From an uncultured Verrucomicrobiae bacterium (GTDB taxonomy: Bacteria > Verrucomicrobiota > Verrucomicrobiia > Limisphaerales > JAFGQR01): 64,000 nt of DNA. The position numbers were made by a program, and so were the translations under genes. Positions 8,673-36,404 of the stretch are shown in pieces. The stretch is from contig CAWBHS010000057.1 in the NCBI GenBank assembly GCA_963788655.1, positions 192,189 to 256,188 on the forward strand, written 5' to 3'. How positions within the stretch are numbered: position 1 is the stretch's first letter; the number at the start of each line of letters is the position of its first letter. The notes beneath the pieces were generated by a model, which saw nothing but the letters and a program-made list of their open reading frames with translations, did not search any database and was not told the origin of the DNA.

Positions 8673-8712
8673 GGGGCAGGGAACCCGCAATTGGCGGCGC
8701 AGATGCTCCTCA

Positions 8713-10226
<1,514 letters not shown>

Positions 10227-14480: not shown

Positions 14481-14622
14481 CTCTTTTTCTGCAACGAGGA
14501 TACACAATAGTCGGGGCAAAGCAAAATGTTAGAATCAGCAGCCCATAGAAGAAGGGATCAAAAAGCCGAAGATTGAAGGCCGATAGCAGCGAGAAGCCGC
14601 CCGACGCAGAATGGATCGTGGT

Positions 14623-17304: not shown

Positions 17305-20300
17305 TTAATGTTCCACCACCCGATAGAACCGATGGGGTTGGCCATCGAGCATTTGCTCGAGACTGGCCGTGGTGCCGTTCAGGGTGACCTCGCCGGGCAA
17401 CACCTTCCACTGGGCTTCCATGAGATTGTCTTTATACTCGACTTGGTAATTCTTGCCGGGAACCGCTTCCCAGGACAAGACCACCCGATCCGTACTGGCG
17501 GTAATGTTCAAGGCGATAGGAGCCGGGGTAAACTCCACTTGATCCACCCAGCCTCGATCCTGGCCGATGGCGCTGCCGTAATCCTTGACATAAACCCACC
17601 ACAGTACGTGACTGCCAGCCGGGATGGCGAACGCCTGTTGCTCCCAGTCCACGTCTCCAGAAATGTTAGTCTGCTCGACGCCGCCAGCGTAGAACCGCAG
17701 GAAGTCACGGTTGGTTTCGGAAGATACCTTCCACCAGAAAGTCAGCGTGCCCGGTCCCACTACCGTGGTTTCCAGCCAGGTTTGCTGATTGTCTTCGATC
17801 ATGCCGCTGCGCGTCGCGTCTTCTCCATCGTGGGTCAGGTTGGTCTGCGCAAGCCAAACAGCGTTGCCGCCCGTGGTCCAGACCAGGTTCGTGGCGTCCA
17901 GGGCCTCCGCCAATGACAACACTGCATTCGTCACCGTCAATTGCGCCGCGCCACTGGTGACGTTCCCGGCCGTATTGCTCACCCGCACCGAATAGGCACC
18001 GGTTTGATCAACCTGCACTGTATCCAACGTCAATTGCGCGGTGGTAGCGCCGCTCACGGTGGCGCCGTTCGCCAAGTCCGCCCCGCCGAACTGCCATTGG
18101 TAGCTGAAGGGCGCGGTGCCGCTCACCGCCACCGAGAAGCTGACTGTCGCCCCGACGCGCACGTTCCGGCTCTGAGGCTGGCTCGTGATGGCCGGTGGGA
18201 GGAGAACCGTCAAGACCGCGTCCTCACTGGTGACGCTGCTGGCGGCGTTGTTCACCACGACCGAATAGGCGCCCGCTTGACCGGCTTGCACATTGGCCAG
18301 CGTCAACTGCGCCGTCGTCGCGCCGCTCACGCCCGTGCCATCCGTCAGGTTGTTGCCGTTCAGACGCCACTGATAATTGAGCGGCGGGGTGCCACTGGCG
18401 GCCACCGAGAAGCTGGCCATCGTGCCTGCAGCCACGGTCTGGCCTTGCGGCTGGCTCGTAATCTCCGGCGGCAGGATAACGGACAAGAGCGCCTCATCAC
18501 TGGTGGTGTCTCCGGCGGCATTGCTCACCACCACGGTATAAGCGCCAGCCTGGGCGGCTTGCACGCCGGTCAGGGACAAGTGAGCCGTGGTGGCACCGCT
18601 CACGCCACTGCCGTTCACCAGGTCCGCGCCGTTGAACTGCCACTGGTAGGTGAACGGTTCGGTGCCCGTGGCTGCCACGTCGAACGTAACATTCCCGCCC
18701 AACGCCACGTTTTGGCTCGCCGGCGGGCTGGTGATTTCCGGAGTCATCGTCATGGTGACAATGGACAAACGGGCGCGCGAACTGACGATGCTGCCGGCCG
18801 CATTGCTCACCACGACCGAATAGTTGCCAGCTTGGGCCAACGGCACGTTGCCCAGACTCAAATAGGCCATGGTGGCGCCGCTGACGTTGCCGCCGTTCAC
18901 CAGATTGGTCCCGTTGAACCGCCATTGGTAAGCCAGCGGCGGCAAGCCCGTAGCGGACACGCTGAAGGAAATCGATTCGTTAGTGAGCACCGTCACACTG
19001 CGCGGCTGTTCCAGAATCGTTGGCAGGCGGTTCTGCGTAAAATTGACCGTGGCAAAGTCGTCGCCAGTGGCAACCGCTTGCGAACGGCCTGTCACCGCCA
19101 CATGCCCGTCGTTCGCGACTGCAATGGCGTTGGCCACGTCCGCCAACCCAGCAAAGTCGTAACTCATCGTCCAGGCTTGATTACCTTGGGTGGTGTATTT
19201 AACCACCAGATAATTTGTGTTGCCCGCGGTCTCCGTGGAACCTGCCACGAACGCGTTACCGGCCAAATCCAACGCCAACGAGGTGGCGTTGTCGTCACCG
19301 GCACCGCTATAGCCAATATCCCATTGTTTGTTGCCGGCGGCATCATACTTGATCGTGATCCAATCCCGGCCGTTGGCGGCGGTGGTGACAGTTCCCGCGA
19401 CGAGAACATTACCCGCCGCGTCAATGGCCAGCGCCCGTGCTTCGTCCTGATCATGGGCCGGACTGTCATAACGTTTCGCCCAAAGTTGGTGGCCGGCGGC
19501 ATCATACTTGACCGTGGCAAAGTCCGCCATGGTGCCAGTGCCCCAGGACGAGCCCGTGACGATCACGTTGCCCGTCGCATCCAGCGCGATGGCCGTGGCC
19601 ATGTCGGTTTGCACGGCGGGGCCCGAATACGTGGCCACCCACAGCACGTTGCCGGCGGAATCGTATTTCACGGTAGTAAAATCCATGCCGTTCGTCGTTC
19701 CAGTGGCGCCGCCCGTCACATACACATTGCCCATGGCATCGACGGCCAGTCCGGCAGCCTGGTCAAGATTTCCGGCCGGGCCATTGAAGCGCGCCGACCA
19801 TAGCTTGGCGCCGCTGGCATTGTATTTGACCGTGTTATAGTCATTGGCGGTGGTGCCGGTGACATAGACATTGCCGGCGCTGTCCACGACCACCTTGCAA
19901 GCGGAGTCATCACCCGCGAAGGAGAAACGCGCAACCCACAGTTGGTTGCCCTCGGATCCATACTTCACGGTGGCGTAATCGTAATTGCCGCCGAGCGATT
20001 GGCCGGTCACATACACGTTGCCAGCGTCATCCACCGTGATGGAATTGGCTGCATCGTAACCGTTACCCAGGCCGTTGTAACGCGCACTCCACAGTTTGGC
20101 GCCATCGGGCGCGTATTTGACTGTCAGATAATCGCTGCCGGACGATTCGCCCACGGAAACCCCGGTGACATACACGTTGCCGGCGTCATCCACCACCATC
20201 GCGTGCGCTTCATCGGCACCGTTGCCCGTCCCGTCGTAACGCGCGGCCCAATCGGTTTCCACATCCGCCACCAAGGTCAACGCCGCCGAAGCGCTGGTGA

Positions 20301-23300
20301 CCGTGCCATGCTGGTTGGTGACGACCACGGAATAGCTGCCGACTTGCGCGGCCTGCACATTGAGCAGGGTTAACCGGGGGGTCGCCGCACCGCTCACGCC
20401 GATGCCGTCGGTCAGGTTGGCGCCGTCGAGACGCCACTGGTAACTCAAGGGTTCGGTGCCGCCGGCGCCGACATCGAAACTCACCGTCGCGCCTGCCAAC
20501 ACAGTTTGGCTCACCGGTTGGGTGGTAATCGAGGGCGGCAGATTGACCGTCAAATGGGCGGCCGAACTCGCCACGCTGCCGGCCACATTGGTTACGATCA
20601 CCGTGTAATCACCCGCCCGGGCAGATTGAACGTTCGCCAGCGTCAGACTCGGCGTGGTCGCGCCGCTTACGCCCGTACCGTTCAGCAGGTTGGCCCCGTT
20701 GAACTGCCATTGGTAGCTCAACGGCGCGGTGCCGGTAGCGGTGACGGTAAAGGTCGCCGTTCCTCCGGCTACCACGGTGCGGCTCTGCGGCTGGCTGGAG
20801 ATCGCCGGCGGAATATTTACCGTCAACTGCGCGTTAACGCTGGTCACGCCGGCCGCCGCGTTGGTAACCATCACCGAGTAAGTGCCGGCTTGCGCGGCCT
20901 GCACGTTGGCCAAAGTCAGGTTGGGCGTGGTCGCGCCGCTCACGCCGCCACCGTTCGGCAGGATGGCACCGTTGTAGCGCCATTGGTAGCTCAACGGCGC
21001 GGAACCGCTGACGCCGACGCTGAAGGTGACGGTATCGCCCACCACCGCAGTTTGGTCGGTCGGTTGTCCGGTTATTACCGGCGAAAGGAACGCCCGCGCC
21101 TGGGTCACGGTGTACGGCTCACCCGCAATTACCAATACGCCCGTGCGTTCGGCCGGATCCGGATTTGCCGCCACGGTGTAGTTCACCGTGCCGTTACCGG
21201 TGCCGCTGGCCCCGGACGTAATGGTAAGCCAGGTATTCGTGCTGACGGCGGTCCAGTCACAACCGTCGATGGCAGTCACGCTGACTTGGGCGCTTTCCTG
21301 CCCTTCGCCATGGCTGCGGTTGGTGGGTGCAATTACGAAGGTGCAAGGCGCGCCGGACTGGGTTACCGGGAAGAGCTGGCCGGCGATATACAAGTTGCCA
21401 ATTCGCGCGAGGCCGGTGGGATTGGCAGCGACCGAGTAGGAAATGGTCCCGCTATTAGTGCCGTTGGCGCCAGCGGTGATCGTGATCCAACTGTTGGTAT
21501 TGCTCACGGTCCAACTGCACCCTTCGAGCGTCGTTAGACTAATCGCTCCGACTTCCGCGGTATGGCCATGGGAACCACTGGCAGGATTAAGGGTAAAGCT
21601 GCAATCCGCGCCGACCTGGGTCACCACGAAGGACCAGCCGCCCATTGACAGTTCCCCAACCCGAGTTAATGCGGTCGGATTAGCCGCCACGGCGTAACTC
21701 AGGGTGGTGCTGCCCGGGCCGTTGGTACTGGAGGTGATCGCGAGCCAATCGTTGGTGGTGTAAGCCGTCCAATTGCAGGTGCCACACGTAATAATGTCCA
21801 CCGAACCCGTCTCCGCCCCGGCCCCGTGGACCCGTTCCGTTGGGGCAATCGCAAACGCGCGCTGGCTCATTGTGAAGATTTGGTCGCCGATGATAAATAC
21901 GCCCGAGCGCTCGTTGACGCTAAGATTGGGCAACACGGTGTATTCAATCGGGCCGCTGCTCACTCCGTTGGTGCCGGCGGTGAAGATGATCCAATCGTTG
22001 GTGTTGATGATGGTCCACGGACAATCCGTGATGGTGGTCAGGGTTACATACGAACTGGCGCCGCCGTACCCGTGGGTGCGTTTGCTGGGCGACAAGTCGA
22101 ACGTGCAGGGAATCCCCTGCTGGCTCACCGTAAACGACAGTCCCGCCACCGCCACCACCCCGGTCCGCATCAGCGGGCTGGGATTGGCCGCGACGGAATA
22201 GTTCACCGTGCCCGGCACGGTGCCGCTCGCACCTGCTGTGATGGTGATCCAGGCATTCGTGCTGACGGCAGTCCATGGACAGCCCGGCACACCGGTGACA
22301 CTGATCTGACCGGTTGCGGCACTGGACGAATGGACGCGATTGCTTGGCGTCAGCCCATAGGTACAAGGTGCTCCGTCCTGGCTCACGGTATAGGCCTTGC
22401 CGGCAACCGTCATGACCCCGGAGCGCACCAAGTGGCTGGGATTGGCGCCCACGGTGTAGTTCACGGCGCCGTTGCCCGTGCCACTCGCACCCGAGGTGAT
22501 CGAGATCCAGGGGTTCGTGTTGACCACCGTCCACGGGCAGTTGGTGAGCGTGGTGACACCGACCTGCCCGGTGGACGAAAGGTAGCCGAAGGCTTGATTG
22601 GTCGCCGAAATCGCGAACGTGCAGGGCGAGCCAAACTGCTGCAGCAGGAACGTTTGACCGGCAATGTCCACGCCACCAATGCGATCGTTCGGTCTCTGAT
22701 TCTCTTGCACGGTGTAGTTGATGATGCCGTTGCCGGCGCCGTTGGTCAGACCGGTGAACACGATCCAGTCGTTCGTGTTGACCACGGTCCAACTGCACTC
22801 GCTCACCGTTAGCACGCTGATCTGGCCGGTCGTGGAGACGTAATCCACAATACGGTCCGTCGGCAGGAGGGTGTAGGTGCAGGGGCTGCCCAACTGGGTC
22901 ACCAAGTACGCGTTATCAGCAATGTTAAGGTAACCACTGCGCGCGTTAGGGCTATAGTTGTCGGTGGTCGTGTAGCGCAACGTCGCCGAGCCAAGCCCAC
23001 TGGCGCCGGCGGTGATCGTGATCCAACTGTTACTGTTGATGGTCACCCAACTACATTCGTTACTGGTGGCAACGCTCACCAAACCGGCTTCAATGCCGCT
23101 GCCGTGCAGACGGTTGGTGGGGGCAATGGCAAACGTGCAGGGCGCGCCATCCTGGGTCACCGGGAAGGCCTGGCCGGCGATGGTCAACGTGCCCGTGCGC
23201 GGGGCGGGAATCGGATTGGCCGCCACGGTGAAGGTCACGATGCCGTCCCCCGAACCGCTGGCCCCGGCGGACACCGCCAGCCAGGAGTTCGTGCTGACCG

Positions 23301-26300
23301 CCGTCCACGCACAACCCGGGATGGTGGTGACACTCACCTGGCCGGTAGCACCTTCATACCCGCTCGTGCCATTGGCCGGCTCCAGCGTGAAGGCGCAGGC
23401 GGCGCCCAATTGGTCGATGGTGAAGGTCTGGCCGGCAAGGGTCATCATGCCCGTGCGCGCGATGGCGGTGGGGTTGGCCTCGACGACGTATTCCACCGTC
23501 CCGCTGCCAATGCCGTTGGTGCCCGCGATAATTTCGATCCAGTCGTTGGTATTGTCCGTGGTCCAGGTGCATCCGGTAATGGTCGTCACGGTCACCTGTC
23601 CCGTTTCAACGAGATCGCTGTGGACCCGGTTGGCCGGGGTGAGCGCAAACGTACACGGCGCGCCGGTCTGACTAATGTCGAAGGTTTGCCCGGCAATCAC
23701 CACCGTGCCCGAGCGGCCATTGGCGTTCAAATTCTCGCCCACCGAATAATTCACGTTGCCGCTGCCGGTACCGTTGGCGCCGGAACTGATCGTGATCCAG
23801 GAATTAGTATTGACCACGGTCCAGTCGCACCCGTTGAGCGTCGTTACCGTCACCAATCCATTGGCGGCCTGGTAACCGTGTGAGGCGCTGGTCGCTGAAA
23901 GCGTGAAGTCACATGGGGCGCCGGATTGGCTGACGGCAAAGGCCTGGCCAGCAATCAGGAGGTTACCGGTGCGCGCGCTGCCGTTGGGATTGGCCGCGAC
24001 CCGGTAGCTGACGCTGCCATTATTCGTGCCGTTGAGGCTTGAGAGAATGGTGATCCAACTGTTGGAATTACTCACCGTCCAACTGCACCCGGTGATGGTC
24101 GTCACGTTGATCGAACCGGTTTCTTCAATATAACCATGGTTTCGGCTGTCTGGGGTCAGCATGAACGTGCAGGGAGCACCCGCCTGATTCACCGTGTATT
24201 GTTGGCCGGCAATGGTGAGTACCGCCGAGCGGGCGATGGCCGTCGGATTGGGCGCCACGGCGTACTGCACGTCGCCGCTGCTGACCCCGTTCGCGTTGGC
24301 GGTGATCGTAATCCAGGCGTTGGTATTCTCCACGAACCAGGTGCAATCATTGACCGCCGTCACGTGGACCGAACCGTTTTCCAGGCCGGAACCATGGGCT
24401 TGCTCGGTCGGTGAAATGGCATAGGTGCAAGGCGCACCCCACTGGATCAGCGGAACCGTCTTGTCCGCGATCAGCAGCACCCCGGCGCGCAAATTCGAGC
24501 TCGGATTGGCGGTCACCGAGTAGTTCACCGTCGCGTTGCCAAGGTAGTTGGTTCCCGTGGAAATCGTGATCCAGGCATTCGTACTCACGGCGGTCCAATC
24601 GCAACCACTGCTGGTCGTCACCGTAATCGTCCCGGATTCGGCGCCATACCCATGAATCAAACTGGTGGGGTTCACGGTATAGACGCACACAATGCCGGTT
24701 TGGCTGATCGTGAAGGGTTGCCCGGCAATCACCAGCACGCCGGTACGCACCCGCGGGCCTTCATTGGCGGTCACGCTGTATGCAACGGTGCCATTACCCG
24801 TGCCGCTGGCACCCGCGGTGATCGTGATCCAACTGTTGGTGTTCACCGTCGTCCAATCGCAATTGCCAACGGGCGTCACGCTGATCTGGCCGCTGTCCGC
24901 CGGGGCGGTGTGCGCCCGCTCAGTGGGTGCCAAGGTGGCGGTACAAGGAGTTGCCAACTGCGTCACGGCGTACGGCAGACCGGCAATGACGAACACGCCG
25001 GAGCGGTCAGTGAAGTTCGGATTGGCGTCCACGCTGTAGTTCACGTTGCCGGAACCAGTGCCGCTCGCGCCGGAGCTGATCGTAATCCAACTGTTGGTAT
25101 TGATGACGGTCCAATCACACCCCTCGATGGTTGTTACCAAAACCTCGCCGGCCTCCGCTCCATGACTGTGAACCCGCTGTTCCGGCGCAATCGCAAAGGT
25201 GCAGGGCGCGCCGTCTTGATTCACCGTGAACTGCTGGTCGGCGACGGTTAGCACGCCCGAGCGCGCGATGGCCGTAGGATTGGCGTCCACCGAATAGCTT
25301 ACGTTACCGTTGCCCGTGCCACTGCCGCCGGCGGTGATCGTGATCCAACTGTTCGGATTACTGACCGTCCAATCGCAGCCATTGAGCGTGGTCACGCTAA
25401 ACTGGCCGGCGCCGCCTTCGTAACCGTGAGGGCGATTGGCTGGCGCCAGCGCGAAGGTGCAGGGCGCGGCCGCTTGTTCTACGGTGAAGGTCTGATCGGC
25501 AATGGTCACCATCCCGGTGCGCGGCAGGCCATTGGGATTGGCGGCGACCGAATAGTTCACGGTGCCACTGCCATTGCCGCTGGCGCCGGCGGTGATGGTG
25601 ATCCAACTGTTCGGGTTGCTGACCGTCCAATCGCACCCGTCCAGTGTAGTCACGCCGATCACCCCTGTCTCGAGGCCGGCACCATGAGTTTGGCCGGTTG
25701 CGGAGAGGGCATAAGTGCAAGGAGCGCCCACTTGGGTGACCGTGAACGCTTGCTCGCCAATCACCAGGACGCCCGTCCGATCAATCGCCGTCGGATTAGC
25801 GGCGACGGTGTATTCCACGCTGCCACTATCCGTGCCGTTGGCGGCCGAAGTGATAGTGATCCAAGTATTGGTATTGACCACGCTCCAGTCGCAGCCGGGA
25901 ATCGTGGTAAGGGCCACGGTGCCGGTTTCTTCGCCGGAACCATGAACCTGGCTGGTGGGCGAAAGCACGTAGGCGCAAGCCGCGCCGGATTGGGTGACCG
26001 TGAACGTTTCTCCGGCAACCGTCAGCACGCCGGTTCGTTCCAACGCGGTCGGATTGGCGGCCACCGCATAGTTCACGCGTTCGCCACCGGAACCGTTGGG
26101 ATCGGACAACAGGGTGATCCAATCGTTGGAATTGTCCACGGTCCAGTTGCAACCACTGCCGCTGCGTTCCCAGAAATCCGGATAGTTCCAACCCATGACA
26201 GGCGGGGAGAACAAATCGATACCCACAGCGTCGCTGGCTTCCATGCCGCGAAATTGAATGGTCCAGGTGAGTGAATCCGGCACCGAGGCCACCAGCGGTA

Positions 26301-29300
26301 CGGCGGCATCCACTTGAAAGTCTTCAAAGATCAACGTGGCCCGCGTCGTGGCTGACACGCCGAACCAACCGCTGTCATACAACACGGTCTGCGGCGTCGG
26401 ATAGCCCGAGGCCGAATCCGAACCATCATTGGCGTAAAAGCGCACCCGGGCTTCGACGGTTCCGACGAAGTTCGCCTGGTTGCGATTCTCGCCCCAATAC
26501 TCCAATTCAAACTTGGTGATCTCGCGGGCTTGTCCATCCAGGATCACCTCGTCGCCCACTTCCAGCGTGCCCGGATTGAAGCGCACCAGAAGATCGTTCA
26601 CCGAATTGTCATACACCAGGCCATCAAATACGACGTTGGTTTCGGTGCCGTTCACCGTGCGTTGCGCGGCTTCCATGCGCGCGGCAAAGTCCACCGGTCC
26701 CAGTGAATTGGTCTTTAGCGCCCAACCGCCGTCGGGCACCACATCCACCGAACCATTTTCGGCGCCGGCGCCGTGAATCATTGCATCGGCGGACAAGGTG
26801 TAGTTACACACCAACCCAGCCTGATGAACGGTGAAGAGTTGACCGCCAATGACCAGTATTCCAGTGCGGGCGCTGCCGCTCAAGTTGGCTGCCACGTCGT
26901 AACTTACGGTGCCGCTATCAGTGCCAGCGGCGCCATCGGTAATCGTAATCCAATAGTTGGTATTGTTCACCGTCCAATCACACCCGCTGGCGGTGCTCAC
27001 GCTGATCGTACCGCTGTCCGTCGCCACGCCGTAATCCGCGCTGGTCGGCGTCAGCGTGAAGTCGCAAGGAACGCCCGCCTGCGTCACCGTGAAGTTTTGA
27101 TCCGCAATGACCAACACGCCGGTCCGCGGTTGGGCACTGGGATTGGCTGCCGCGGTGTAACTCACGCTGCCGCTGCCGGTGCCGCCGGCGCCGGCGTCAA
27201 TCGTAATCCAGTCGTTGGTGTTGACCACGGTCCACTCGCACTCAGCGAGGGTCGTGACCGCAATGGTGTCGCTGGCTGCGTCGGCGCTCAGGCTGGCGCT
27301 GGCAGGATCCAGCGTATAATTGCAGGTCGCCCCAGCTTGGCTCACTGTGAAAAATGTATCCGCAATACCCAGCACACCCGTCCGCGCGGCGGTCGTGGGA
27401 TTGGCGGTCACGGTGTAGGTCACCATTCCACTGTTCGTCCCCTCCAAATCCGAGGTGATCGCAATCCAGTCGTTGGTGTTGACCACGGTCCAACTGCACC
27501 CGGAAAGGGTGGTGAGCATGACCATGCCGGCTTCCGCGTCGGCACTGTGATCAGCGTAGGTTGGCAGGAGCGAATAGGTGCAGGGTGCGGCTCGCTGCGT
27601 GAGCGTCATGGTTTGGCCGTCGGCTTCCACCACGCCCGATCGCTCATAGCCGTTCGGATTGGCGGCCACCGTGTAGGTAATCGACGCGCTGCCCGAACCG
27701 GTCATGCCGGAAGTAATCGTGATCCAATCGTTGGTGTTGACCACGGTCCAATCGCAACCGGCGGTGGCGGTCATGGTCAGCGTCCCGCCCGCGGCGCCAT
27801 AGCCATGCGTGCGCGTCGAAGGAGACAGTTTATATGTGCAGGGCGTTCCCAATTGGCTGAGCGTGAACGGTTGGTCACCAATTACCACCACTCCTAACCG
27901 GGCTTCCAGGTTGGGATTGGCCGCCACGCTGTAGGAAATATCGGCATTGCCCAGGCCACTGGTCGCCGACTGGATCGAGATCCACGCATTGGTATTGACC
28001 ACCGTCCACGCGCATTCACTGCTGGTGGCCACGCTCACCAAATCGGTGGTGGCGCCGTAACCATGGGTCCGGTCAATCGGCGAGAGCGTATAGACGCAAC
28101 CCACGCCCGCTTGGGTCACCGTGAACGTTTCATCAGCGACATTAAACACACCGGTTCGCGCGCCGAAGTCCGGATTGGCCGTCAGCGTATAATCCACGGT
28201 GCCGTTGCCCGTGCCGGTCAAGGCCGAGGTGATCGTGATCCAGTCATTGGTGTTGATCACGGCCCAACTGCACTCGCTGGTTGTGGTAACGGCAACCGAT
28301 CCGTTTTCCACCCCGGCGCCATGGCTTTGCTCGGTCGGTGCCAACGCATACGTGCAGGCGATGCCAGTCTGGCTGACGGGGTACAGTTGGTCGCCAATAA
28401 GCAGCGTCCCCGCCCGGGCGCTGACGTTCGAATTGGCTTCGACCGTGTAGCTCACGCTGCCGTTGCCGTTGCCGCTCAATTCGGAAGTGATCGTGATCCA
28501 GCTATTGGTATTCACCACGGTCCAGGCGCAGTCGCTGCTCGTCGTTACCGCGATGGTGCCGTTTTCCGAACCAGTCCCGTGATTACCCGCCGCCGGATCA
28601 ATCGCATAAGCGCAGGGTGCGCCCGTTTGGGCGACCACGAACACCGTCAAGGGATCGCCTTCAATGGTCAGGTTGCCGGTGCGCGCGGTGCGGTCCAGGT
28701 TGGCCGCCACGTCAAAGTTCACCGTTCCTTCGCCGGTGCCGCTGGCGCCGGAGGTGATGGTGATCCAATCGTTGGTATTGATGATCCCCCACGTGCAAGT
28801 GGCGGTGGTCAGCACCGTCATCTGGGCGGTGGTGGCCTCCGCTCCGAGCACCAGGTTGGTCGGCGAGGTTTCATAGACGCAAAACGCACCGCGCTGGGTC
28901 AGGGTGAAGGGCTGGTCGCCGACCACCACGACGCCCGCTCGATCCAGGGCGCCCGTATTTTCGCTCAGGCTGTAATTCACGCTGCCGTCGCCCGTGCCGG
29001 TCGTCGCGGAAGTGATCGTAATCCAATCATTCGTCGTGACGACAGTCCAGGGACAGCCCAGGACCGCAGTAACGCTGATTTGCCCTTCGGTGGCCGCAAA
29101 ACCATGAACGCGGTCAGTCGGCGAAATAGAGTAACTGCACGGCCGGGCGCGCTGCGTCAGCGTGAGCGTTTCGCCTTCGATGACCACTGTGCCGATTCGC
29201 TCGCTCGAACTCGGGTTGCTAGCCACGTCGTAGTTGATCGTGCTGGTGCCGGTGCCGTTCGGACTCGAGGTGATGGTTATCCAATCGTTGGTGTTGATAA

Positions 29301-32300
29301 TGGTCCAACTGCATGCGCTGTCCGCCGTCAGGCTAAACGTATCGCTGGTTGCGCCGTATCCGTGCGTGCGGGTCGAGGGCGAAACCTTGTAAGTGCAAAC
29401 CTGCCCCAGTTGGCTCAAGGTAAAGGGTTGTCCGCCAATCAGCACCACGCCGGTCCGGAGCGAATACGCGGGATTGGCATCCACCGAATACCCGATATCC
29501 GCGTTGCCCGTACCGCTGAGCGGCGAGTTGATCGCGATCCAATCGTTGGTATTGACGATGGTCCAGGCGCACTCACTCGTCGTCGCCACGCTGACCAATC
29601 CCGTCGAGGCGCCATATCCGTGCGTGCGGTCGATCGGGGACAAATCGTAAGCGCAAGTCGCGCCAGCTTGATTGATCGTGAACAGCTCGCCGGAGATGGT
29701 TACGAAACCAGTGCGCGGGCTCAAACTCGGGTTGGCCCCCACCGAGTAGTTCACGGTGCCGTTGCCGGTGCCGCTGGCGCCCGCGTCGATGGTGATCCAC
29801 GCGTTGGTGTTTTCCACCGACCACGAACACTCGGCGTCAGTCGTTACCCCCACCTGACCGGCTTCAGCTCCTTCCCCATGATCCGCGCTGACCGGCGCCA
29901 GCGCGTAAGCGCAAGGGATGCCCGCTTGCATCACCGGGAATACTTCGTCGCCAATCGTGAGATTACCCGTCCGCGACAGGTGACTAGGGTTGGCGTCCAC
30001 AGTGTAAGCAACCGTTCCGTTATCGGTGTTGTCCAGGCTCGAGGTAATGGTGATCCAAGTGTTCGTGTTCACCACCGTCCAACTGCAACCGCTCGGCGTC
30101 GTCACGTCCACGGAACCGTTGTCAGCGTCCGCGCCATGACTGCCGGCCGCGGGCGTCAAGGTGTAGGCGCAGGGCGTAGCGTGTTGGGTCAGGGTCAGGG
30201 CGGCGTCGCCGATAACGAGCACGCCGACTCTCTCCACCGCGTCGGGATTAGCGGCGACGTCGTAGGTGATCTCGGCGTTGCCGGTGCCGCTGGCGGCGGA
30301 GGTGATGGTAATCCAGTCGTTGGTGTTGACGATGGTCCAGTCGCACTCGGTGCCGGCCGTCAAACTGATGGAATCGCTCGTCGCGCCGTAACCGTGCGTG
30401 CGATCCGGCGGCGAAAGCGTGTAGGTGCAGGGCGCGGCGGCTTGATTGATAGTAAAGGACTGGCCGGCAATGGATAAGACCGTCGAGCGAGGCGTCATAT
30501 CGGGATTGGTCGCCACGGTGTAATTCACACTGCCGTTCCCGGTTCCGCTGGCGCCGGAGTCAATCGTAACCCAGGCGCTGGGATTGACCACACTCCAGGC
30601 GCAGCCGGCGCCGGCAGTGACAGTCACCGCGCCCGTTTCCGTTCCAGCGCCATGGTCCGCGCTGGCCGGGGCGATCGCATAGGTGCAGTCGAGTCCCGCC
30701 TGATTCACTTGGAACGCCTGGCCGGCGACGGTAAGGAAGCCGCTGCGCGCCGTGTATTCGGGATTGGCCTCCACCGTGTAGTTCAACGCACCACTGCTCG
30801 TGTTGTCCAAGGCCGAAGTGATCGTAATCCAGGTGTTGGTGTTCACCACGCTCCAAGCACAACCCGTGAGCGTCGTCACGGTTGTGGTTCCCGAATCCGC
30901 GGTCGCCGGGTGATTGGCCACCGTGGGCGCGAACACATAGGTGCAAGTGGGGGCGCGTTGCGTGAGCGCCAGGGCCTGGCCGCCAATCAGCACCACGCCA
31001 CTCCGCTCGATGCCATTGGGATTGGCGGCGACATCGTACGTCACCGTTGTGCCGCCGGTGCCGTTCAGAGCCGAGGTAATCGTGATCCACCCGTTGGTGT
31101 TCACCACACTCCAGGCGCAGCCGGCGCTGGTGGTCAATCCCACGGTTCCGGAGGTCGCGGAGTAGCCATGCGTCCGGCTGGTGGTGGAGAGCTTGAACGT
31201 GCAAGGCGCCCCCAGTTGGCTCAAGCTGAAGGGCTGACCGCCAATCACCACCGTGCCGGCCCGGCCTTCCAGACTTGCGTTGGCGGTGACGCTGTACCGA
31301 GACGTCGGCGCTGCCGGTACCGCTCAGCGGCGAATTGATCGTGATCCAATCGTTGGTTTTGACCACCGTCCAATTGCATCCGCTGCTGGTCGCCACACTC
31401 ACCAAATCGGTGGTGGCCCCGTAGCCGTGGGTGCGGTCGAGTGGGGATAACGTGTACGCGCAGGCAAGGCCGGCCTGCGTCACGGTGAACGTTTCGCCGC
31501 CGATGGTCAGCGTTCCGCTCCGGCTGTTGAGATCCGAATTCGCGGCCACTTCATAACTCACGCTGCCACTACCGGTGCCGCTGGCAGCAGACGTCAGCGT
31601 GATCCACGCGGCGGAACTCTCCGCCGTCCAGTCGCACCCGCCGGCGGTCGTGACGGTCACAGTTCCTGGTCCTCCCGCCGCGTCGGGGTTGGCACTGATC
31701 GGCGTGAGCGCATACGTACACGTAGCCGCAGCTTGCGTCACGGTGAAGAGTTCTCCGGCAATCACCAGGTTGCCACTCCGGGGATTCAGTTCGGGATTGG
31801 CCGCGACGTCGTAATTCACCGAGCCGCTGCCGGAGCCGGTTGCCCCCGCGGTAATGGTGATCCAGGAATTCGTGTTGATCGTCTCCCAATCGCAACCATT
31901 GTCGGTGGTCACCGCCACGGTCCCCAGTCCGCCACCGGCGTTGAACGAGTCACTGTTCGCACCCAATGAATAAGCGCAACTCCCCTCAATGGTCACCGTG
32001 CCGTCCACGTACGTGGAACTCAATGGCGTGGCAAACTCGTCCGACACTTCGCGACCAATCGGCTGGTCTCCAAGAGTCACCGGGGTGGCGACCGTGCTCG
32101 TACCGGGAGCGGCGGCGAAGCACACGTCAACAACCACCTGGGAGCCTGCGGGAAAGGTGGAGCTGAAATAAAGCGCCACGGCGCATCCAACACGACCCGA
32201 CTCAGCCTGATTGGCGTTGAGCACCAAGGGGAACGCGCTGCTGGCGCCGCTGCCCAAACTCGCAGAGACGAAGGTCAGCAGGGCGGGATCGTAATTCAGA

Positions 32301-32485
32301 CTGAAGCCCAAGGCATTTTCATCGCCCTGGGCCTCCAGAAAAACTGACAGACACTGCGTCTGTCCACGGGAAACCGTCATGTCCCCAACCCGCAAACTTC
32401 GTTCAGCGCCGAAACTGGCTGACACAAGCGTCAGCATTAACAGCGAAACGACCGCCAAATACCTTGTGTTGACTGATTCTCTCAT
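17305..32485 (-). CDS. Giant secreted modular protein A (~5,059 aa): cohesin-like, 40 BACON-like repeats, 3 Ig, SBBP propeller, 4 Ig, FWWKVSSE module, RFYRVV C-terminal domain; one apparent +1 insertion at ~31302
   Basis: Track ORFs 30560..32485 and 17305..31251 are one gene. The first leaves frame inside a repeat (...SGTGSADVS|VQRHRQ) and the second resumes it (VIGGQPFSLSQLG). Removing one G (TCG g TAC) restores ADVSYSVTANASLEGRAGTVVIGGQPF. Signal peptide MRESVNTRYLAVVSLLMLTLVSASFGA. The 13.9 kb from 31251 to 17305 is a single unbroken frame. Confidence 0.9.
17308..17523 (-). other. Shared C-terminal domain, subtype 1 (protein A): ...VVLSWEAVPGKNYQVEYKDNL...RFYRVVEH
   Basis: The last 72 aa align by eye with the last 70 aa of protein D, and more loosely with the C-termini of B and C. 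Confidence 0.65.
17530..17929 (-). other. Unassigned ~130-aa FWWKVSSE...GWVDQV module (single copy in protein A)
   Basis: LSLAEALDATNLVWTTGGNAVWLAQTNLTHDGEDATRSGMIEDNQQTWLETTVVGPGTLTFWWKVSSETNRDFLRFYAGGVEQTNISGDVDWEQQAFAIPAGSHVLWWVYVKDYGSAIGQDRGWVDQVEF. The same module occurs 15 times in protein D. Confidence 0.7.
17935..19035 (-). repeat. Four Ig I-set-like domains (protein A)
   Basis: Same YQW.FNG / SGAT...L.L.NV...AG.Y.VVV.N consensus as at 20270-21090. Confidence 0.75.
19040..20265 (-). repeat. Eight SBBP-type beta-propeller repeats (protein A)
   Basis: Eight ~50-aa units of the type A..VDDAGNVYVTG.......DY.TVKY...G..LW.ARY, matching the PF06739-like pattern. Confidence 0.7.
20270..21090 (-). 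repeat. Three Ig I-set-like domains (protein A)
   Basis: P.IT.QP..Q.V..G..V.F.V...G..PLSYQW..NG..L.....VSGATTP.LTL.NVQ..Q.G.Y.V.V.N..G.V.S..A.LTV, three times. Confidence 0.75.
21095..31978 (-). repeat. Array of 40 tandem ~86-aa (258-nt) BACON-like repeats in protein A
   Basis: I counted the units one by one. Consensus: C.Y.L.P....HG.....G.V.VTT...C.W.VVNTN.WITITSG.SGTGNG.V.Y.V..NP....R.G.L.I.G..F.V.Q.G. Nearly every unit has two conserved Cys. Some units form 3-unit super-repeats (THGYG type / LDNT type / IDAG type). Confidence 0.75.
26165..26740 (-). other. ~190-aa unassigned domain nested inside one BACON-like repeat of protein A
   Basis: One unit is split: CNYTLSADAMIHGAGAENGSVDVVPDG [GWALKTNSLGPVDFAARMEAAQRTVNGTETNVVFDGLVYD...IDLFSPPVMGWNYPDFWERSGS] GCNWTVDNSNDWITLLSDPNGSGGERVNYAVAANP. 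Confidence 0.7.
31985..32404 (-). other. Cohesin-like domain (protein A, N-terminal)
   Basis: LRVGDMTVSRGQTQCLSVFLEAQGDENALGFSLNYDPALLTFVSASLGSG...VVVDVCFAAAPGTSTVATPVTLGDQPIGREVSDEFATPL. It shows the cohesin pattern (set of variants -> G.S..L.YDP..L.FVS...G) and is clearly paralogous to 36743-37168 and 57400-57828. Confidence 0.6.
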
Positions 32486-32675: not shown

Positions 32676-35600
32676 CTATTGTTGCTTCACGGCCCGGTAA
32701 AATCGTTGCGCAAAATTGGTGGTGCCAAGGTCGATGAAATCGATGGTCCCCAGCGTATTGGTCAGGCGAGACAGCGTATCCCAATGCACCAGATTGGTTG
32801 AACCTTGCACTTCCCAAATCTCGCCGGGCACGCCGGACAGCGTCAGCTTCATTTGTCCGGTGGCGGCGGGCATGGTGATCGGCCCGAGGGTGACGCCCAC
32901 AGTGGAAAACTGCTGGGTGACCGTGAACAATTGATTGGCCACGACCAACTGGCCCGTACGCTCCTCAAGACCGGTATTGGCGCTCACTTCATAGCTCACG
33001 CTGCCGTCGCCGGAACCACTCTCGCCCGCGGAGATCGTGATCCAGTCATTGGGGTTTTCGACGGTCCAATTGCACCCGTCGCCGGCCGTCACCGTAATCA
33101 AGCCGCTTTCCGAGCCCGGACCATGAGTAGCCTCGGTCGGCGCAATTACCCAGGTGCAATCCGATCCCGACTGGGTCACGGTAAAGAGCGCAAACGGATC
33201 GCCGGGAATGGTCAACATACCGGTCCGTTCATTGCGCGTCGGATTGGGCGCCACGGTGTAGGTCACGGTGCCGAAGTTGGTGCCGTCCGGACTGGAAGTG
33301 AGGGTGATCCAACTGTTGGTGCTGACCACCGTCCAACTGCAACTGGTCAGCGAGGAGATGGCCACTTGGGCAGTTTCCTGGGCCGGGCCGTGGATGCGGT
33401 TGGTCGGCGAGAACTCGAAGAGGCAAAACGCGCCGCGTTGGTTCAAGGTGAAAACCTGATCGGCAACAAACACGAGCCCGGTCCGTTCGAGAGCGCTGAT
33501 ATTGGGCGGAATCGTATAACTGAATTCGCCGTTGCCGCTGCCGGTGGTGCTCGAACTGATCGTGATCCAGGCGTTCGTGTTGGATACCGTCCAATTGCAG
33601 CCGTCGTTGGCCGTCACGCTCACGGTGCCGCTGCTGGCGCCGCTGCCGTGCAACCGGTCCTCCGGGGATAATTTGTAACTACAGGTTTGGCCCTGTTGCC
33701 CCAGGTTGAAGGGTTGGCCGCCAATAACCACCACGCCGGAACGGTCATTGAACGTGTCATTGGCTGCCACGGAGTAACTGACCTCGCCGGGGCCGGTACC
33801 GGTCAGGCCCGAGGTGATCGTGATCCAACTGTTCGTATTCTCGACGAGCCATTCACATCCGTTCAGCGTGGTCACGCTCACCGTCCCGGCCGCAGCGCCG
33901 TAACCGTGCGTGCGACTGCCCGGGGTGATGGAATAGGTACACGGTGAACCAATTTGCGTCACGCGGAACGCTTCGCTGCCAATGGTCACCACGCCGGTGC
34001 GGTTACTCAGGCCCGCATTGGCGTCCACGGAGTATTGCACTTGCGTGCTGCCGGTGCCGGTGGGGCTGGAGCTGATCGTAATCCAATCGTTGGTGTTGAC
34101 CACGGTCCACGTGCAGCCGTCGAGCGTTGTCAGGTCCACCGTGTCCGCGGCGGCGCCGTAACCATGGGTGCGGTCAATGGGAGACAACTTATAGGTGCAG
34201 GGCCGTCCCACTTGACTCACGCTGAACACCTGATTGGCGATCACGATCACGCCTGCCCGGCCTTCGATGCCCGGATTATCTTGCACGGCATACTCCACGT
34301 CGCCACTGCCGGTCATGCTCGGGGCGGAGTTGATCGTGATCCAAGTGTTGGTGTTCACTACGTCCCACGTGCAACCGTCGAGCGTCACCACACTCACTTG
34401 GTCTGTAGCCGCGCCGTAACCGTGCGTGCGATTGATCGGCGTCAATGCATACGTGCAGGGCACGCCCGCCTGGATCAACGTAAAGGGTGTGCCGCCAACG
34501 GTCACTACACCGGTCCGGTCATTCAGGCCGGAATTATCCGCCACGTTGTAGTTCACCGTAGTACTGCCCTGCCCATTCGAGCTCGTCGTAATGGTGATCC
34601 AACTATTGGTGTTAACGATCGTCCAACTGCACCCGCTGAGGGTGGTGAGGCCGATCGTGCCAGCGCTGGCGCCGTAACCGTGGTTGCGACTGGTCGGTGA
34701 CAAGGCGTATTCACAGGGGGCGCCGGTTTGCGTCAGCACAACCGTTTCGCCGCCAATCACGAGCGTCCCGGTCCGGGCGTTGGGACCTTCGTTGGCGGCC
34801 ACCGTGTAGTTGATGGTAGCACTGCCGCTGCCTTCGGGATTGGAGGCAATGGTAATCCAAGTGTTGGTGTTCACCACACTCCAGACGCATCCATCGAGCG
34901 CAACCAAGTTCACACTGTCGGCCGCCGCGCCGTAACCGTGCGTGCGGGTCGTCGGCGTCAATGCATACGTGCAGGGCACGCCCGCCTGGATCAACGTAAA
35001 GGGTGTGCCGCCAATGGTCACCACGCCGGTCCGGTCATTCAGACCGGGATTGGCCACCACGGTGTAGTTCACCGTGGTACTGCCCTGACCGTTGGGACTC
35101 GTCGTGATGCTGATCCAGCTATTGGTGTTGACGATCGTCCAAGTGCATCCGCTGAGGGTGGTGAGGCCGATCATGCCGGCGCTGGCGCCGTAACCGTGGT
35201 TGCGACTGGTTGGCGACAAAGCGTATTCACACAGGGCGCCGGTTTGCGTCAGGACGAGCGTTTCACCCCCAATCACGAGCGTCCCGGTCCGGGCGTCGGG
35301 ACCTTCGTTGGCGGCCACCGTGTAGTTGATAATCGCGCTGCCGCTGCCCTCGGGGTTCGAGGTGATGGTAATCCAAGTGTTGGTGTTCACCACGCTCCAG
35401 GCGCAACCATCGAGCGTCGCCAAGCTCACACTGTCAACCGCCGCTCCGTAACCGTGCGTGCGGGTCGTCGGCGTCAATGCATAGGTGCAGGGCACGCCCG
35501 CCTGGGTCAATGTGAACGGCGCGCCGCCAATGGTCACCACGCCGATCCGGTCGTTCAAGCCGGGATTGGCCACCACGGTGTAGTTCACCGTGGTACTGCC

Positions 35601-36404
35601 CTGCCCGTTGGGACTCGTCGTGATGCTGATCCAGCTATTGGTGTTGACGATCGTCCAACTGCACCCGCTGAGGGTATTGAGGCCAATCGTACCAGCGCTG
35701 GCGCCGTAGCCGTGATTACGACTGGTCGGAGTCAAGGTATAGGTACACGGGGCGCCGGTTTGGATCAGGACGAATGTTTCACCGCCAATCACCACCGTCC
35801 CACTCCGGTCGTTGGGGCCTGGATTGGCGGCCACCGTGTAGTTGACTTCAGTGCTGCCGGTGCCTTCGAGGCTCGTCGTGATGGTAATCCAGGCATTGGT
35901 GTTCTCCACGGTCCAGGGGCAGCCGATGACGGAGGTCAAGCTGACGGCGCCGCCAGTCGCGCCATATCCATGGGTCCGCCCGGTCGGCGACAACTTGTAG
36001 GTGCAAGGGCGCCCGCGTTGCGTCACGTTGAACGGTTGGTCAGCAATGACGAGCACGCCCGTCCGCTCGGCGGAACTTGGATTGGCGTCCACACTGTAGA
36101 GGATGTCGCTGGTGCCGGCGCCACTGGCGCTGGACAGAATGTCGATCCAGGTGTTCGTGTTCACCACCGTCCAGGCACAGCCGCTGGTGGTCACCACGGA
36201 AACCCGATCGGTGGTGGCGCCGTAACCGTGCGTGCGCTCTATCGGGGAGAGCGCATACGTACAAGGCTCGCTCGCTTGGGCTGGGCTTTGACCGAGGACA
36301 GCCAAAGTTATCGCCAAGGGCATAAGGGCCCTCCACACCTTCTGGTTGAAGAAATTTCTCATACTTCTGCTCTCGTTTGCTTGTGGTTCGTTACACCATT
36401 TCAT
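32676..36404 (-). CDS. Secreted protein B (~1,230 aa): 13 BACON-like repeats + RFYRAV C-terminal domain
   Basis: Intact track ORF 32676..36404. The likelier start is ATG 36362 (MRNFFNQKVWRALMPLAITLAVLGQSPAQA = signal peptide). I counted 13 units, then ...LVHWDTLSRLTNTLGTIDFIDLGTTNFAQRFYRAVKQQ. Confidence 0.9.
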   Translation of the reverse strand: MKWCNEPQANESRSMRNFFNQKVWRALMPLAITLAVLGQSPAQASEPCTYALSPIERTHGYGATTDRVSVVTTSGCAWTVVNTNTWIDILSSASGAGTSDILYSVDANPSSAERTGVLVIADQPFNVTQRGRPCTYKLSPTGRTHGYGATGGAVSLTSVIGCPWTVENTNAWITITTSLEGTGSTEVNYTVAANPGPNDRSGTVVIGGETFVLIQTGAPCTYTLTPTSRNHGYGASAGTIGLNTLSGCSWTIVNTNSWISITTSPNGQGSTTVNYTVVANPGLNDRIGVVTIGGAPFTLTQAGVPCTYALTPTTRTHGYGAAVDSVSLATLDGCAWSVVNTNTWITITSNPEGSGSAIINYTVAANEGPDARTGTLVIGGETLVLTQTGALCEYALSPTSRNHGYGASAGMIGLTTLSGCTWTIVNTNSWISITTSPNGQGSTTVNYTVVANPGLNDRTGVVTIGGTPFTLIQAGVPCTYALTPTTRTHGYGAAADSVNLVALDGCVWSVVNTNTWITIASNPEGSGSATINYTVAANEGPNARTGTLVIGGETVVLTQTGAPCEYALSPTSRNHGYGASAGTIGLTTLSGCSWTIVNTNSWITITTSSNGQGSTTVNYNVADNSGLNDRTGVVTVGGTPFTLIQAGVPCTYALTPINRTHGYGAATDQVSVVTLDGCTWDVVNTNTWITINSAPSMTGSGDVEYAVQDNPGIEGRAGVIVIANQVFSVSQVGRPCTYKLSPIDRTHGYGAAADTVDLTTLDGCTWTVVNTNDWITISSSPTGTGSTQVQYSVDANAGLSNRTGVVTIGSEAFRVTQIGSPCTYSITPGSRTHGYGAAAGTVSVTTLNGCEWLVENTNSWITITSGLTGTGPGEVSYSVAANDTFNDRSGVVVIGGQPFNLGQQGQTCSYKLSPEDRLHGSGASSGTVSVTANDGCNWTVSNTNAWITISSSTTGSGNGEFSYTIPPNISALERTGLVFVADQVFTLNQRGAFCLFEFSPTNRIHGPAQETAQVAISSLTSCSWTVVSTNSWITLTSSPDGTNFGTVTYTVAPNPTRNERTGMLTIPGDPFALFTVTQSGSDCTWVIAPTEATHGPGSESGLITVTAGDGCNWTVENPNDWITISAGESGSGDGSVSYEVSANTGLEERTGQLVVANQLFTVTQQFSTVGVTLGPITMPAATGQMKLTLSGVPGEIWEVQGSTNLVHWDTLSRLTNTLGTIDFIDLGTTNFAQRFYRAVKQQ
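32679..32909 (-). other. Shared C-terminal domain, subtype 2 (protein B)
   Basis: ATGQMKLTLSGVPGEIWEVQGSTNLVHWDTLSRLTNTLGTIDFIDLGTTNFAQRFYRAVKQQ aligns with protein C PEGGVKLILFGEPGAVWELQSSADLEHWDPLTTVTNTTGTVEYIDADAINANPRFYRAVSQ. Confidence 0.7.
32910..36263 (-). repeat. Array of 13 BACON-like repeats (protein B), including a 516-bp higher-order repeat
   Basis: Unit length is exactly 86 aa. Units 3/5/7 and 4/6 are near-identical. The string GTCAATGCATA(C/G)GTGCAGGGCACGCCCGCCTGG recurs at 34441, 34957 and 35473, exactly 516 bp apart. Confidence 0.85.

Follow-up and report, generated by a model that had tools for sequence, protein, structure and literature searches.

The four minus-strand gene units A to D of the 64-kb window (the whole stretch of DNA that was analysed) are each closed by a related C-terminal domain of 70-75 aa, as translation of the four sites revealed. 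All four tails belong to a single uncatalogued domain family (about 65-75 aa), which is very large and found mostly in Verrucomicrobiota (Verrucomicrobiae, "subdivision 3", Limisphaerales, and Pedosphaera), the group of the window itself, and the domain is almost always the last one of a Sec-exported multi-domain extracellular protein, usually in a single copy. It probably serves as a common surface-retention or export tag. As polysaccharide degraders, Verrucomicrobiota are abundant in soil, freshwater, and the gut, and their genomes encode very large exoproteomes; to our knowledge, how these exoproteins reach the cell surface and stay there is essentially unstudied.

Tail domains and their gene units

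The gene units were delineated from the ORF list, N-termini, and Pfam matches, together with overlapping open frames for A, C, and D. The units and their tails are as follows:

17305..32485, minus strand: gene unit A, about 5,000 aa
17308..17532, minus strand: gene A tail domain, subtype 1, ending RFYRVVEH (stop codon 17305-17307; HMM E = 6e-36)
32676..36404, minus strand: gene B, 1,228-1,242 aa, intact ORF
32679..32915, minus strand: gene B tail domain, subtype 2, ending RFYRAVKQQ (stop codon 32676-32678; HMM E = 3e-32)
36530..46497, minus strand: gene unit C, about 3,300 aa
36533..36748, minus strand: gene C tail domain, subtype 2, ending RFYRAVSQ (stop codon 36530-36532; HMM E = 6e-30)
46523..63023, minus strand: gene unit D, about 5,400 aa, in at least four pieces
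46526..46744, minus strand: gene D tail domain, subtype 1, ending RFYQVVEY (stop codon 46523-46525; HMM E = 6e-35)

Minus-strand translation reproduced the tail sequences given for the four sites in the preliminary description, with C-termini reading ...VVLSWEAVPGKNYQVEYKDNLMEAQWKVLPGEVTLNGTTASLEQMLDGQPHRFYRVVEH in gene A, ...VVLTWDTLPGKTYRIYYKDNLSDPDWNLVAGQLTLTATTAAIEDPEGKQVQRFYQVVEY in gene D, ...MKLTLSGVPGEIWEVQGSTNLVHWDTLSRLTNTLGTIDFIDLGTTNFAQRFYRAVKQQ in gene B, and ...VKLILFGEPGAVWELQSSADLEHWDPLTTVTNTTGTVEYIDADAINANPRFYRAVSQ in gene C; in gene A, the HMM envelope of the tail corresponded to residues 4598-4672 of the open frame 17308-31323. The domain ended in RFY(R/Q)(A/V)V plus two or three residues. 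Two details had to be corrected, since RFYR, previously ascribed to all four proteins, is RFYQ in gene D, and the proteins end four or five residues after RFY(R/Q) in every case rather than two to five after RFYR. The relatedness of the four C-termini, as first described, was confirmed by translation, HMM, and pairwise BLASTP, with 43% identity between the A and D tails (E = 5e-23), 51% between those of B and C (E = 1e-23), and 24-33% for cross-subtype pairs (locally aligned stretches of 27-67 residues, E = 5e-7 to 1e-2). Searched against the six-frame translation of the window, the four-tail HMM found these four copies only (E = 1e-30 to 1e-37). The similarity between A and D reached beyond the tail to the last ~600 residues (41% identity), and the two are therefore paralogous at their C-terminal ends, while the region common to B and C is the tail alone, about 86 aa.

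Ahead of the tails, the gene units have different architectures. Gene unit A (N-terminus MRESVNTRYLAVVSLLMLTLVSASFGA) comprises a signal peptide, more than 20 BACON repeats, SBBP, Ig I-set repeats, a lectin-like domain, and the tail, and a frameshift splits it into ORFs 30560-32485 and 17305-31251. Gene B, whose product is P0103 in the public protein collection (from a contig of 360,468 bp), encodes a signal peptide, 11 BACON repeats, and the tail, which is directly preceded by a BACON domain (Pfam). Gene unit C consists of three overlapping ORFs (44785-46497, 40425-44939, and 36530-40663) and runs from a signal peptide through PA14, Ig, LTD, CotH, LTD, He_PIG, and a cohesin-like domain to the tail; its CotH match ends at profile position 205 of 322, 19 residues short of the ORF end, and its cohesin-like domain (E = 3e-4) lies just ahead of the tail; such domains also occur in 2 of 60 relatives (E = 3e-12). 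Gene unit D has a signal peptide, a chondroitinase-B-like beta-helix, PKD/BACON, many Ig I-set repeats, a lectin-like domain, and the tail. The "four giant proteins" of the preliminary description thus stand as four gene units, but three of them are split by frameshifts into two to five overlapping ORFs.

DPP4 and DUF885, Sec-type periplasmic enzymes encoded in the same window, are without the tail. Among the genes of the window we found neither a sorting enzyme nor candidate export machinery, in agreement with the earlier remark that no dedicated sorting enzyme was visible there. The CPBP/Rce1-like ORF at 15179-16441, which adjoins gene A, was considered as a myxosortase-like sorting protease and rejected, because an intramembrane protease would find no membrane segment in the tails to act on and because no such gene recurs beside other carriers.

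A large family at the protein end

The domain extends beyond this locus: in public protein data, the four-tail profile matched 12,913 representative clusters (50% identity, E ≤ 1e-3). The family signature is L.l.G.PG..Y.vq.StdL..W..l...t...g...f.D..a.N...RFYR[AVL][VL]x(P), followed by the C-terminus, and its polar and aromatic positions W, D, N, and R-F-Y-R are invariant or nearly so across sequences that are 20-40% identical. The carriers are annotated as "hypothetical protein" or equivalent. When the last 131 aa of A-D were analysed by hmmscan, no Pfam family matched the four tails above its gathering threshold (best sub-threshold matches Tissue_fac, E = 0.017, and fn3_SORL1, E = 0.14), and no NCBIfam model matched at E ≤ 10. 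Across 60 relatives no Pfam family consistently covered the tails, with fn3 matching 9 of the 60 multi-copy relatives when counted per protein over any part; the tail had no PDB sequence match, and literature searches on the domain returned nothing relevant. A profile search for homologous proteins with the four tails gave short, fragmentary proteins only, which therefore said little on architecture.

Genomic copies were sought in reference genomes with a hand-made degenerate, stop-free DNA pattern for D-x4-N-x3-RFYRAV. About 90 of the 113 genuine copies (~80%) lay in metagenome-assembled genomes (MAGs) labelled Verrucomicrobiota, and the DUF885 protein of the window shares 69-74% identity with proteins bearing the names Verrucomicrobiae or Limisphaerales. 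The taxonomic labels of some sampled MAGs are not reliable, with near-identical tails found in bins labelled as three different phyla; three low-GC scaffolds with the label CPR/Patescibacteria, a group generally considered to lack an outer membrane, also contained genuine copies. Several MAGs recurred two to five times among only 120 sampled hits, alongside the four copies in the window.

The position of the domain was strongly biased. A stop codon followed within 8 codons in 108 of the 113 genuine genomic copies (96%; after 2-3 codons in 96 of them), compared to a generous expectation of 25% (binomial P ~3e-58), and the last copy lay within 10 residues of the protein end in 140 of the top 150 representatives, a list that over-represents multi-copy proteins because it was ranked by summed score. 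The tails end one to six residues past the last strand, usually in Pro and with no hydrophobic segment, the final residue of the 108 terminal genomic copies being Pro in 72, Gln in 17, and Tyr in only 3. Tandem arrays of 2-9 copies exist and run to the C-terminus, and the 150 top representatives contained 360 internal copies. Internal positions, named in the preliminary description as grounds for refutation, thus do occur in the tandem arrays, but in the large majority of carriers the domain is at the extreme C-terminus. RF[YF]R was kept in 81% of terminal and 67% of internal copies (P = 0.004); since internal copies keep it, RFYR is the last beta-strand of the domain and not a terminal signal motif.

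AlphaFold2 (AF2) modelling predicted a compact Ig/Fn3-like beta-sandwich of six to seven strands for the tail, the gene A model (pLDDT 83.8) having six main strands and a seventh short bridge and the gene B model (pLDDT 87.4) six strands and one helical turn. In Foldseek searches, generic Ig-, Fn3-, and CBM-like structures matched alike (TM 0.5-0.66; best E = 4e-3, none at E ≤ 1e-3), and weak resemblances to CBM21, CBM56, and discoidin modules appeared in structure and sequence comparisons. With this generic fold and with RFYR in 67% of internal copies, the conserved motif could be purely structural. As for a known Fn3/Ig family of no positional bias, the alternative raised at the outset, the Ig/Fn3-like character of the fold holds, but the C-terminal bias is strong and no Pfam family matches.

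The passengers of the tail are diverse, with 62 Pfam families among 41 carriers; further carrier domains include LRR, Laminin_G, BACON, CARDB, PD40, and S8 subtilases, the giant S8 subtilases combining an N-terminal hydrophobic anchor with C-terminal tail arrays. Signal-peptide-like N-termini were present in all four tail genes of the window. A crude heuristic with high background scored them in 43 of 51 complete relatives and in 139 of 365 control ORFs, and thus in most carriers. The suggested co-occurrence with a specific protease, transporter, or outer-membrane protein gene was not found: in 120 loci of up to 8 kb, with ORFs of ≥120 aa clustered, no neighbour gene recurred beside the tail genes, and the ORF clusters that did recur represented tail carriers, generic response regulators, and shadow ORFs. 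At one locus, a single instance, a tail ORF adjoins a GspE/secretin operon.

Retention, sorting, or structure

We favour, at roughly even confidence, the reading that the tail is a new, largely Verrucomicrobiota-specific C-terminal envelope-targeting module, most plausibly for non-covalent retention. A tail-bearing protein would first be exported by Sec; the folded tail may then attach to a shared envelope component, which could be an outer-membrane receptor or a surface glycan such as LPS or exopolysaccharide. In this way, giant glycan binders and enzymes would be kept at the cell surface, with tandem copies adding avidity. The tail would differ from a short, cleaved, sortase-type signal. Binding is favoured over a pure export signal by the tandem arrays, the copies on CPR-labelled scaffolds, the S8 subtilases with both an N-terminal anchor and tail arrays, and the weak CBM21/CBM56/discoidin echoes. 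The sorting or anchoring tag proposed in the preliminary description is consistent with the terminal position, the varied passengers, the signal-peptide-like N-termini, the failure of Pfam and NCBIfam models to match, and the tail-less DPP4 and DUF885; the internal copies with RFYR, the generic fold, and the lack of a sorting enzyme, transporter, or recurrent neighbour speak against it.

Known envelope-binding modules offer a partial parallel. SLH, LysM, cell-wall-binding repeats, and CBM21/CBM56 are likewise small autonomous modules at one end of diverse secreted proteins, and SLH/LysM/CBM-type modules share with the tail a variable copy number from one to several, consistent with avidity; beta-sandwich CBMs further resemble it in fold and in conserved aromatic and Arg residues. 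The tail nevertheless has no significant similarity to any SLH, LysM, or CBM module, and its 96% terminal rule is stricter than that of most CBMs.

An unlikely alternative is a secretion or sorting signal in the manner of the T9SS C-terminal domains (CTDs) of Bacteroidota (type A, TIGR04183/PF18962 Por_Secre_tail; type B, TIGR04131), in which a dedicated verrucomicrobial outer-membrane translocon or sortase-like enzyme would recognise the folded terminal sandwich and Sec-exported cargo would be moved across the outer membrane, possibly with cleavage of the tail and covalent attachment of the cargo. The anatomy agrees: T9SS CTDs are Ig-like beta-sandwiches of 70-100 aa at the extreme C-terminus of Sec-exported proteins, and the tail (70-80 aa) matches them by model and position, as it does in having many carriers per genome, unrelated passengers with Sec signal peptides, and restriction to one lineage. 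The somewhat better preservation of RF[YF]R in terminal copies and the secretin neighbour point the same way, but the latter is an anecdote. T9SS CTDs, however, are not known to occur internally or more than once per protein, and the C-terminal export signals known to us are likewise single copies, whereas tail arrays with internal copies are common; copies on scaffolds labelled as a group generally considered to lack an outer membrane are also hard to accommodate. Membership by sequence was rejected, no CTD model matching the last 131 aa of A-D at E ≤ 10 (hmmscan, Pfam and NCBIfam). Candidate machinery was absent from the window, including PorK/L/M/N, Sov, and PorU/V, and none recurred in the neighbourhoods; we know of no T9SS described from Verrucomicrobiota.

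Somewhat more doubtful still is that the tail plays no part in targeting and is an ordinary structural module of Fn3/Ig type, spread by domain shuffling as a stable cap or spacer at the C-terminus, its terminal bias arising from exchange of gene 3' ends or from folding or protease stability of the last domain. The generic sandwich with no specific structural neighbour, the weak fn3 and Tissue_fac matches, tandem repeats resembling those of other Ig spacers with RFYR kept internally, and the failure to find a partner in 120 loci are all compatible with it, and Fn3/Ig spacers (PF00041 and relatives) are like the tail in overall fold and size, subtype 1 even showing an Fn3-like pattern "...vsW....G..Y.v.Y". 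By Pfam threshold, membership of PF00041 was rejected, the four tails giving no fn3 match, and the tail has its own signature (W...D..a.N...RFYR) and a C-terminal rule foreign to Fn3 domains. A 96% stop rate in more than 100 independent genes of unrelated upstream architecture is hard to explain without selection on position; the other Ig, BACON, and Fn3 repeats of the same proteins show no terminal rule, and the near-invariant W, D, N, and R-F-Y-R exceed the needs of a core in sequences this divergent.

Least probable, and in our view very unlikely, is dockerin-like docking, in which multi-protein surface assemblies would form by oligomerisation through the tail or by its plugging of diverse secreted proteins into a scaffold or receptor domain on another surface protein. 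Cellulosomes likewise use a conserved C-terminal module across varied enzymes and binders, and some carriers have cohesin-like domains, but these are rare and sit on the tail-bearing proteins themselves rather than on separate scaffolds, and dockerin (PF00404) was rejected because the models are all-beta, bar one helical turn in B, with no EF-hand-like helices and no Pfam match.

Other C-terminal systems were also compared. LPXTG/sortase, PEP-CTERM/exosortase, GlyGly-CTERM/rhombosortase, and MYXO-CTERM/myxosortase similarly equip many exported proteins within a single lineage with a shared C-terminal element, but their tripartite signals consist of a motif, a transmembrane helix, and a basic cluster, whereas the tails are folded soluble domains. 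LPXTG, PEP-CTERM, GlyGly-CTERM, and MYXO-CTERM membership was rejected, as no C-terminal hydrophobic segment and no Pfam or NCBIfam match was present; the sequence ends and hmmscan results thus bear out the original statement that the proteins have no trailing TM helix, PEP-CTERM, LPXTG, or T9SS-CTD-like tail. An outer-membrane barrel beta-signal was rejected in view of the last residue, mostly Pro and rarely Tyr, and of the 70-aa sandwich, which is not a barrel.

Implications for the verrucomicrobial surface

A domain of at least ~13,000 sequence clusters is missing from the copies of Pfam, NCBIfam, and PDB searched, and it obeys a nearly absolute rule of being the final domain of exported proteins. 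The family is well defined and ready for modelling and deposition. The tail offers an easy computational way to mark the surface and extracellular proteins of Verrucomicrobiota, and phylogenetic profiling on it a route to its partner, be that a ligand, a receptor, or machinery. Should the tail be a structural cap only, its positional rule would still need explaining; should the partner be a dedicated translocon or attachment system, this would constitute a new protein-sorting pathway. More speculatively, and we consider it doubtful, the RFYR tail may address proteins to a verrucomicrobial pathway yet to be discovered, one that reads a folded C-terminal beta-sandwich and carries Sec-exported proteins, including giants, across or onto the outer membrane, filling the role of the T9SS with unrelated machinery. 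If so, possession of the tail would mark out the proteins that a whole phylum secretes or carries on its surface.

Four related C-terminal tails in the window

The four giant secreted-type gene units A, B, C and D lie head-to-tail on the minus strand of the window, from 17305 to 63023, and translation showed that each ends in a related segment of 70-75 aa, hereafter the tail, which closes with ...RFY(R/Q)(A/V)V, 2-3 further residues and the stop. All four N-termini are signal-peptide-like and the modules are of extracellular type.

Tails of the four gene units and the modules of their carriers
17308-17532, minus strand: tail of A (subtype 1); more than 20 BACON repeats, SBBP and Ig I-set repeats
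32679-32915, minus strand: tail of B (subtype 2); 11 BACON repeats
36533-36748, minus strand: tail of C (subtype 2); PA14, LTD, CotH, He_PIG and a cohesin-like domain
46526-46744, minus strand: tail of D (subtype 1); chondroitinase-B-like beta-helix, PKD/BACON and many Ig repeats

The preliminary description had placed the tails correctly, and its proposal of a related terminal domain on all four units was borne out by the translations, the pairwise identities and a four-tail profile, which recovered these four copies only from the six-frame translation of the window; its universal RFYR ending needs amending, as D has RFYQ. Identity was 43% between the A and D tails, 51% between B and C, and 24-33% across subtypes over local alignments of 27-67 residues (E 5e-7 to 1e-2). 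The A-D likeness extends over a paralogous C-terminal region of ~600 residues (41% identity) and so cannot count as separate evidence for a tag. B and C have their last ~86 residues in common and nothing else, which makes this pair the informative example of tail modularity. Directly before their tails, A and D also share a second domain of ~60 aa (17533-17700 and 46745-46918, minus strand; ...DWE..AF.IP.G...L.W.Y.KD....G.D..WVD.VEF), which resembles MAM/jelly-roll-like domains preceding tails elsewhere (InhA-like_MAM in 3 of 41 carriers, and faintly at the metagenomic locus L001).

Three of the four units are split into overlapping ORFs, the split genes or pieces of the window including 1919-4268, 8710-10226, 11614-14519 and 40425-44939 (all minus strand), and the CotH match of C ends early, at profile position 205 of 322. 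DPP4 is broken into DPPIV_N and Peptidase_S9, lipoamide dehydrogenase into Pyr_redox_2 and Pyr_redox_dim, and 2-oxoglutarate dehydrogenase E1 into E1_dh and Transket_pyr; because housekeeping genes are broken as well, the frameshifts are most likely assembly indel errors rather than real pseudogenes. DPP4 (2508-4268) and a DUF885 protein (6540-8324; 69-74% identity to proteins named Verrucomicrobiae or Limisphaerales), both on the minus strand, are the window's two periplasmic-type enzymes with a clear Sec signal and carry no tail, so the tail marks just a subset of exported proteins. The names of the DUF885 relatives suggest a Verrucomicrobiota MAG as the source of the window. Just upstream of D, a beta-helix (NosD/Beta_helix) ORF (63049-63813, minus strand) ends in VVSYKDSAVQPGMIEYYIRP before its stop and gave no match to the tail HMM; since the ORF shows no signal peptide within the window, it probably represents the 3' part of a fifth gene of secreted type that runs off the window and would have no RFYR tail.

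A generic fold and an uncatalogued family

Against Pfam and NCBIfam at E<=10, the four tails matched nothing except sub-threshold Tissue_fac and fn3_SORL1, in agreement with the earlier remark that no PEP-CTERM, LPXTG or T9SS-CTD-like tail is present. Among 60 multi-copy relatives no Pfam family consistently spanned the tails, the commonest being MIB_HERC2 and F5_F8_type_C_2 (15/60 each, mostly below threshold) and fn3 (9/60). AlphaFold2 models were confident (pLDDT 83.8 for the A-type tail and 87.4 for the B-type) and all-beta, with six main strands; Foldseek against the PDB returned generic Ig, Fn3 and CBM-like sandwiches only (TM ~0.5-0.66, none at E<=1e-3), and a profile search of PDB sequences gave no significant match. 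Public carriers are named 'hypothetical protein', 'internalin A' or 'YDG domain-containing protein', and a full-text literature search found no description of the domain. The fold is thus generic and the sequence family uncatalogued in every library searched here. When compared with known classes, the tail belonged neither to T9SS CTDs, PEP-CTERM/LPXTG-type signals or OMP beta-signals nor to dockerins or Pfam fn3; it would fit best among the C-terminal beta-sandwich targeting or anchoring domains.

Position, passengers and taxonomic spread

The four-tail profile gave 12,913 matches at E<=1e-3, and 596 at E<=1e-10, among 1.84 billion representative proteins. The best 150 of the 12,913 carry one to nine copies each, and in 140 of these 150 no more than 10 residues separate the end of the last copy from the C-terminus, the usual ending being ...RFYR[VLA]xxxP. 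The same 150 contain a further 360 copies at internal positions, for the most part in tandem with linkers of 2-15 residues, and both subtypes are found internally as well as terminally. Among copies aligned to the model end, RF[YF]R is kept in 81% of terminal versus 67% of internal ones (P=0.004); its frequency in internal copies makes RFYR the last beta-strand of the domain, not a protein-end motif.

Because ranking by summed score biases this list toward multi-copy proteins, an independent DNA-level test was made with a stop-free degenerate pattern for D-x4-N-x3-RFYRAV, which hit at least 120 loci in GTDB species-representative genomes. Among the 120 matches listed, 113 were genuine domains by HMM (E<1e-3), and in 108 of these 113 (96%) a stop lay no more than 8 codons beyond the domain, the interval being 2 codons in 67 cases and 3 in 29 (P ~3e-58 against a generous chance expectation of 25%); the final residue was Pro in 72 of the 108 terminal copies, and the genes were mostly single-copy, with two copies in only about six.

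Passengers vary widely: 41 complete carriers yielded 62 Pfam families, among them Metallophos, beta-lactamase, Peptidase_S8, LRR_5, Laminin_G_3, RCC1, Glucodextran_B and MAM, and further passengers are LRR, BACON, CARDB/TSP3 and PD40. A crude signal-peptide heuristic was positive in 43/51 complete carriers versus 139/365 control ORFs from the same loci. In a family of 2,300-3,400 aa proteins (P0069, P0079, P0086, P0091, P0094, P0110, P0144 and P0181), a conserved hydrophobic anchor at the N-terminus, M(R/K)F.SRTWFL.SLLFF..., goes together with C-terminal arrays of 2-7 tail copies; the three scanned (P0069, P0079 and P0110) are S8 subtilases that also have a P-domain, and two of them a PPC.

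Among the matches listed, ~90 of the 113 genuine copies lie in Verrucomicrobiota-labelled MAGs (Verrucomicrobiae, subdivision 3, Pedosphaera, Limisphaerales). In this set several MAGs account for 2-5 hits each, and the window alone holds four copies, so genomes probably carry many. The other labels are heterogeneous and some are doubtful. Bins with the labels Oscillochloris, Acidoferrum and Bifidobacteriaceae share near-identical tails, TIIYA(T/S)TNL..WTP(I/L)YTNP...RFYRAV(A/E)Q, and carriers of typical verrucomicrobial style sit in other bins of 60% GC that are labelled Bifidobacterium or Klebsiella (the loci concerned are L015, L056 and L107, and also L022, L077, L078 and L093); the likely cause is an error of binning or labelling, or else horizontal transfer. 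Three scaffolds of low GC (41-48%), with the labels Nomurabacteria, Taylorbacteria and Patescibacteria, also carry convincing tails (L094 2-247, L095 5337-7733 and L097 3-533), with the CPR-like neighbours metK and PNPase at L094 and membrane-protein ORFs near L095; one carrier on these scaffolds is a 798-aa signal-peptide protein. CPR are generally considered to have no outer membrane, and these copies suggest either that the domain is able to work without one or that it was transferred horizontally.

Candidate partners and the role of the tail

No recurrent neighbour of tail-bearing genes was found across the 120 loci listed, and no secretion or sortase-like gene in the window, as the preliminary description had noted for sorting enzymes. 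A 420-aa ORF (15179-16441, plus strand), convergent with the 3' end of A, matched the CPBP/Rce1-like intramembrane proteases (E 5e-6), a family that includes myxosortase; it is not credible as the sorting enzyme, because the tails are soluble and have no membrane segment and no gene of this kind recurs beside other carriers. In a single case, at L001 (340-8168) on a 278-kb metagenomic contig, a tail ORF of 55 aa (P0039) comes after an InhA-like MAM protein, immediately downstream of an operon for a GspE-type ATPase and a secretin.

The tail thus defines a domain family of Ig/Fn3-like type that is very large, uncatalogued and found chiefly in Verrucomicrobiota, and almost without exception it closes exported multi-domain proteins whose passengers are unrelated to one another. 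We infer that it is a shared C-terminal targeting module, which in the favoured version would bind a common envelope component and so retain its carriers non-covalently at the surface. A T9SS-CTD-like export signal, improbable but a serious rival, shares the terminal position; a binding module fits better than a one-shot signal because tandem multiplication suggests avidity, copies occur on CPR-labelled scaffolds and tails are found on N-terminally anchored subtilases. An equally serious, equally doubtful rival is a purely structural cap. A dockerin-like docking role is less likely still, the tail lying outside the dockerins. The sorting or anchoring tag first proposed is partly supported: the terminal rule, the diverse cargo and the lack of any entry in the searched domain libraries are real and striking, while internal tandem copies and the structural nature of RFYR speak against it.
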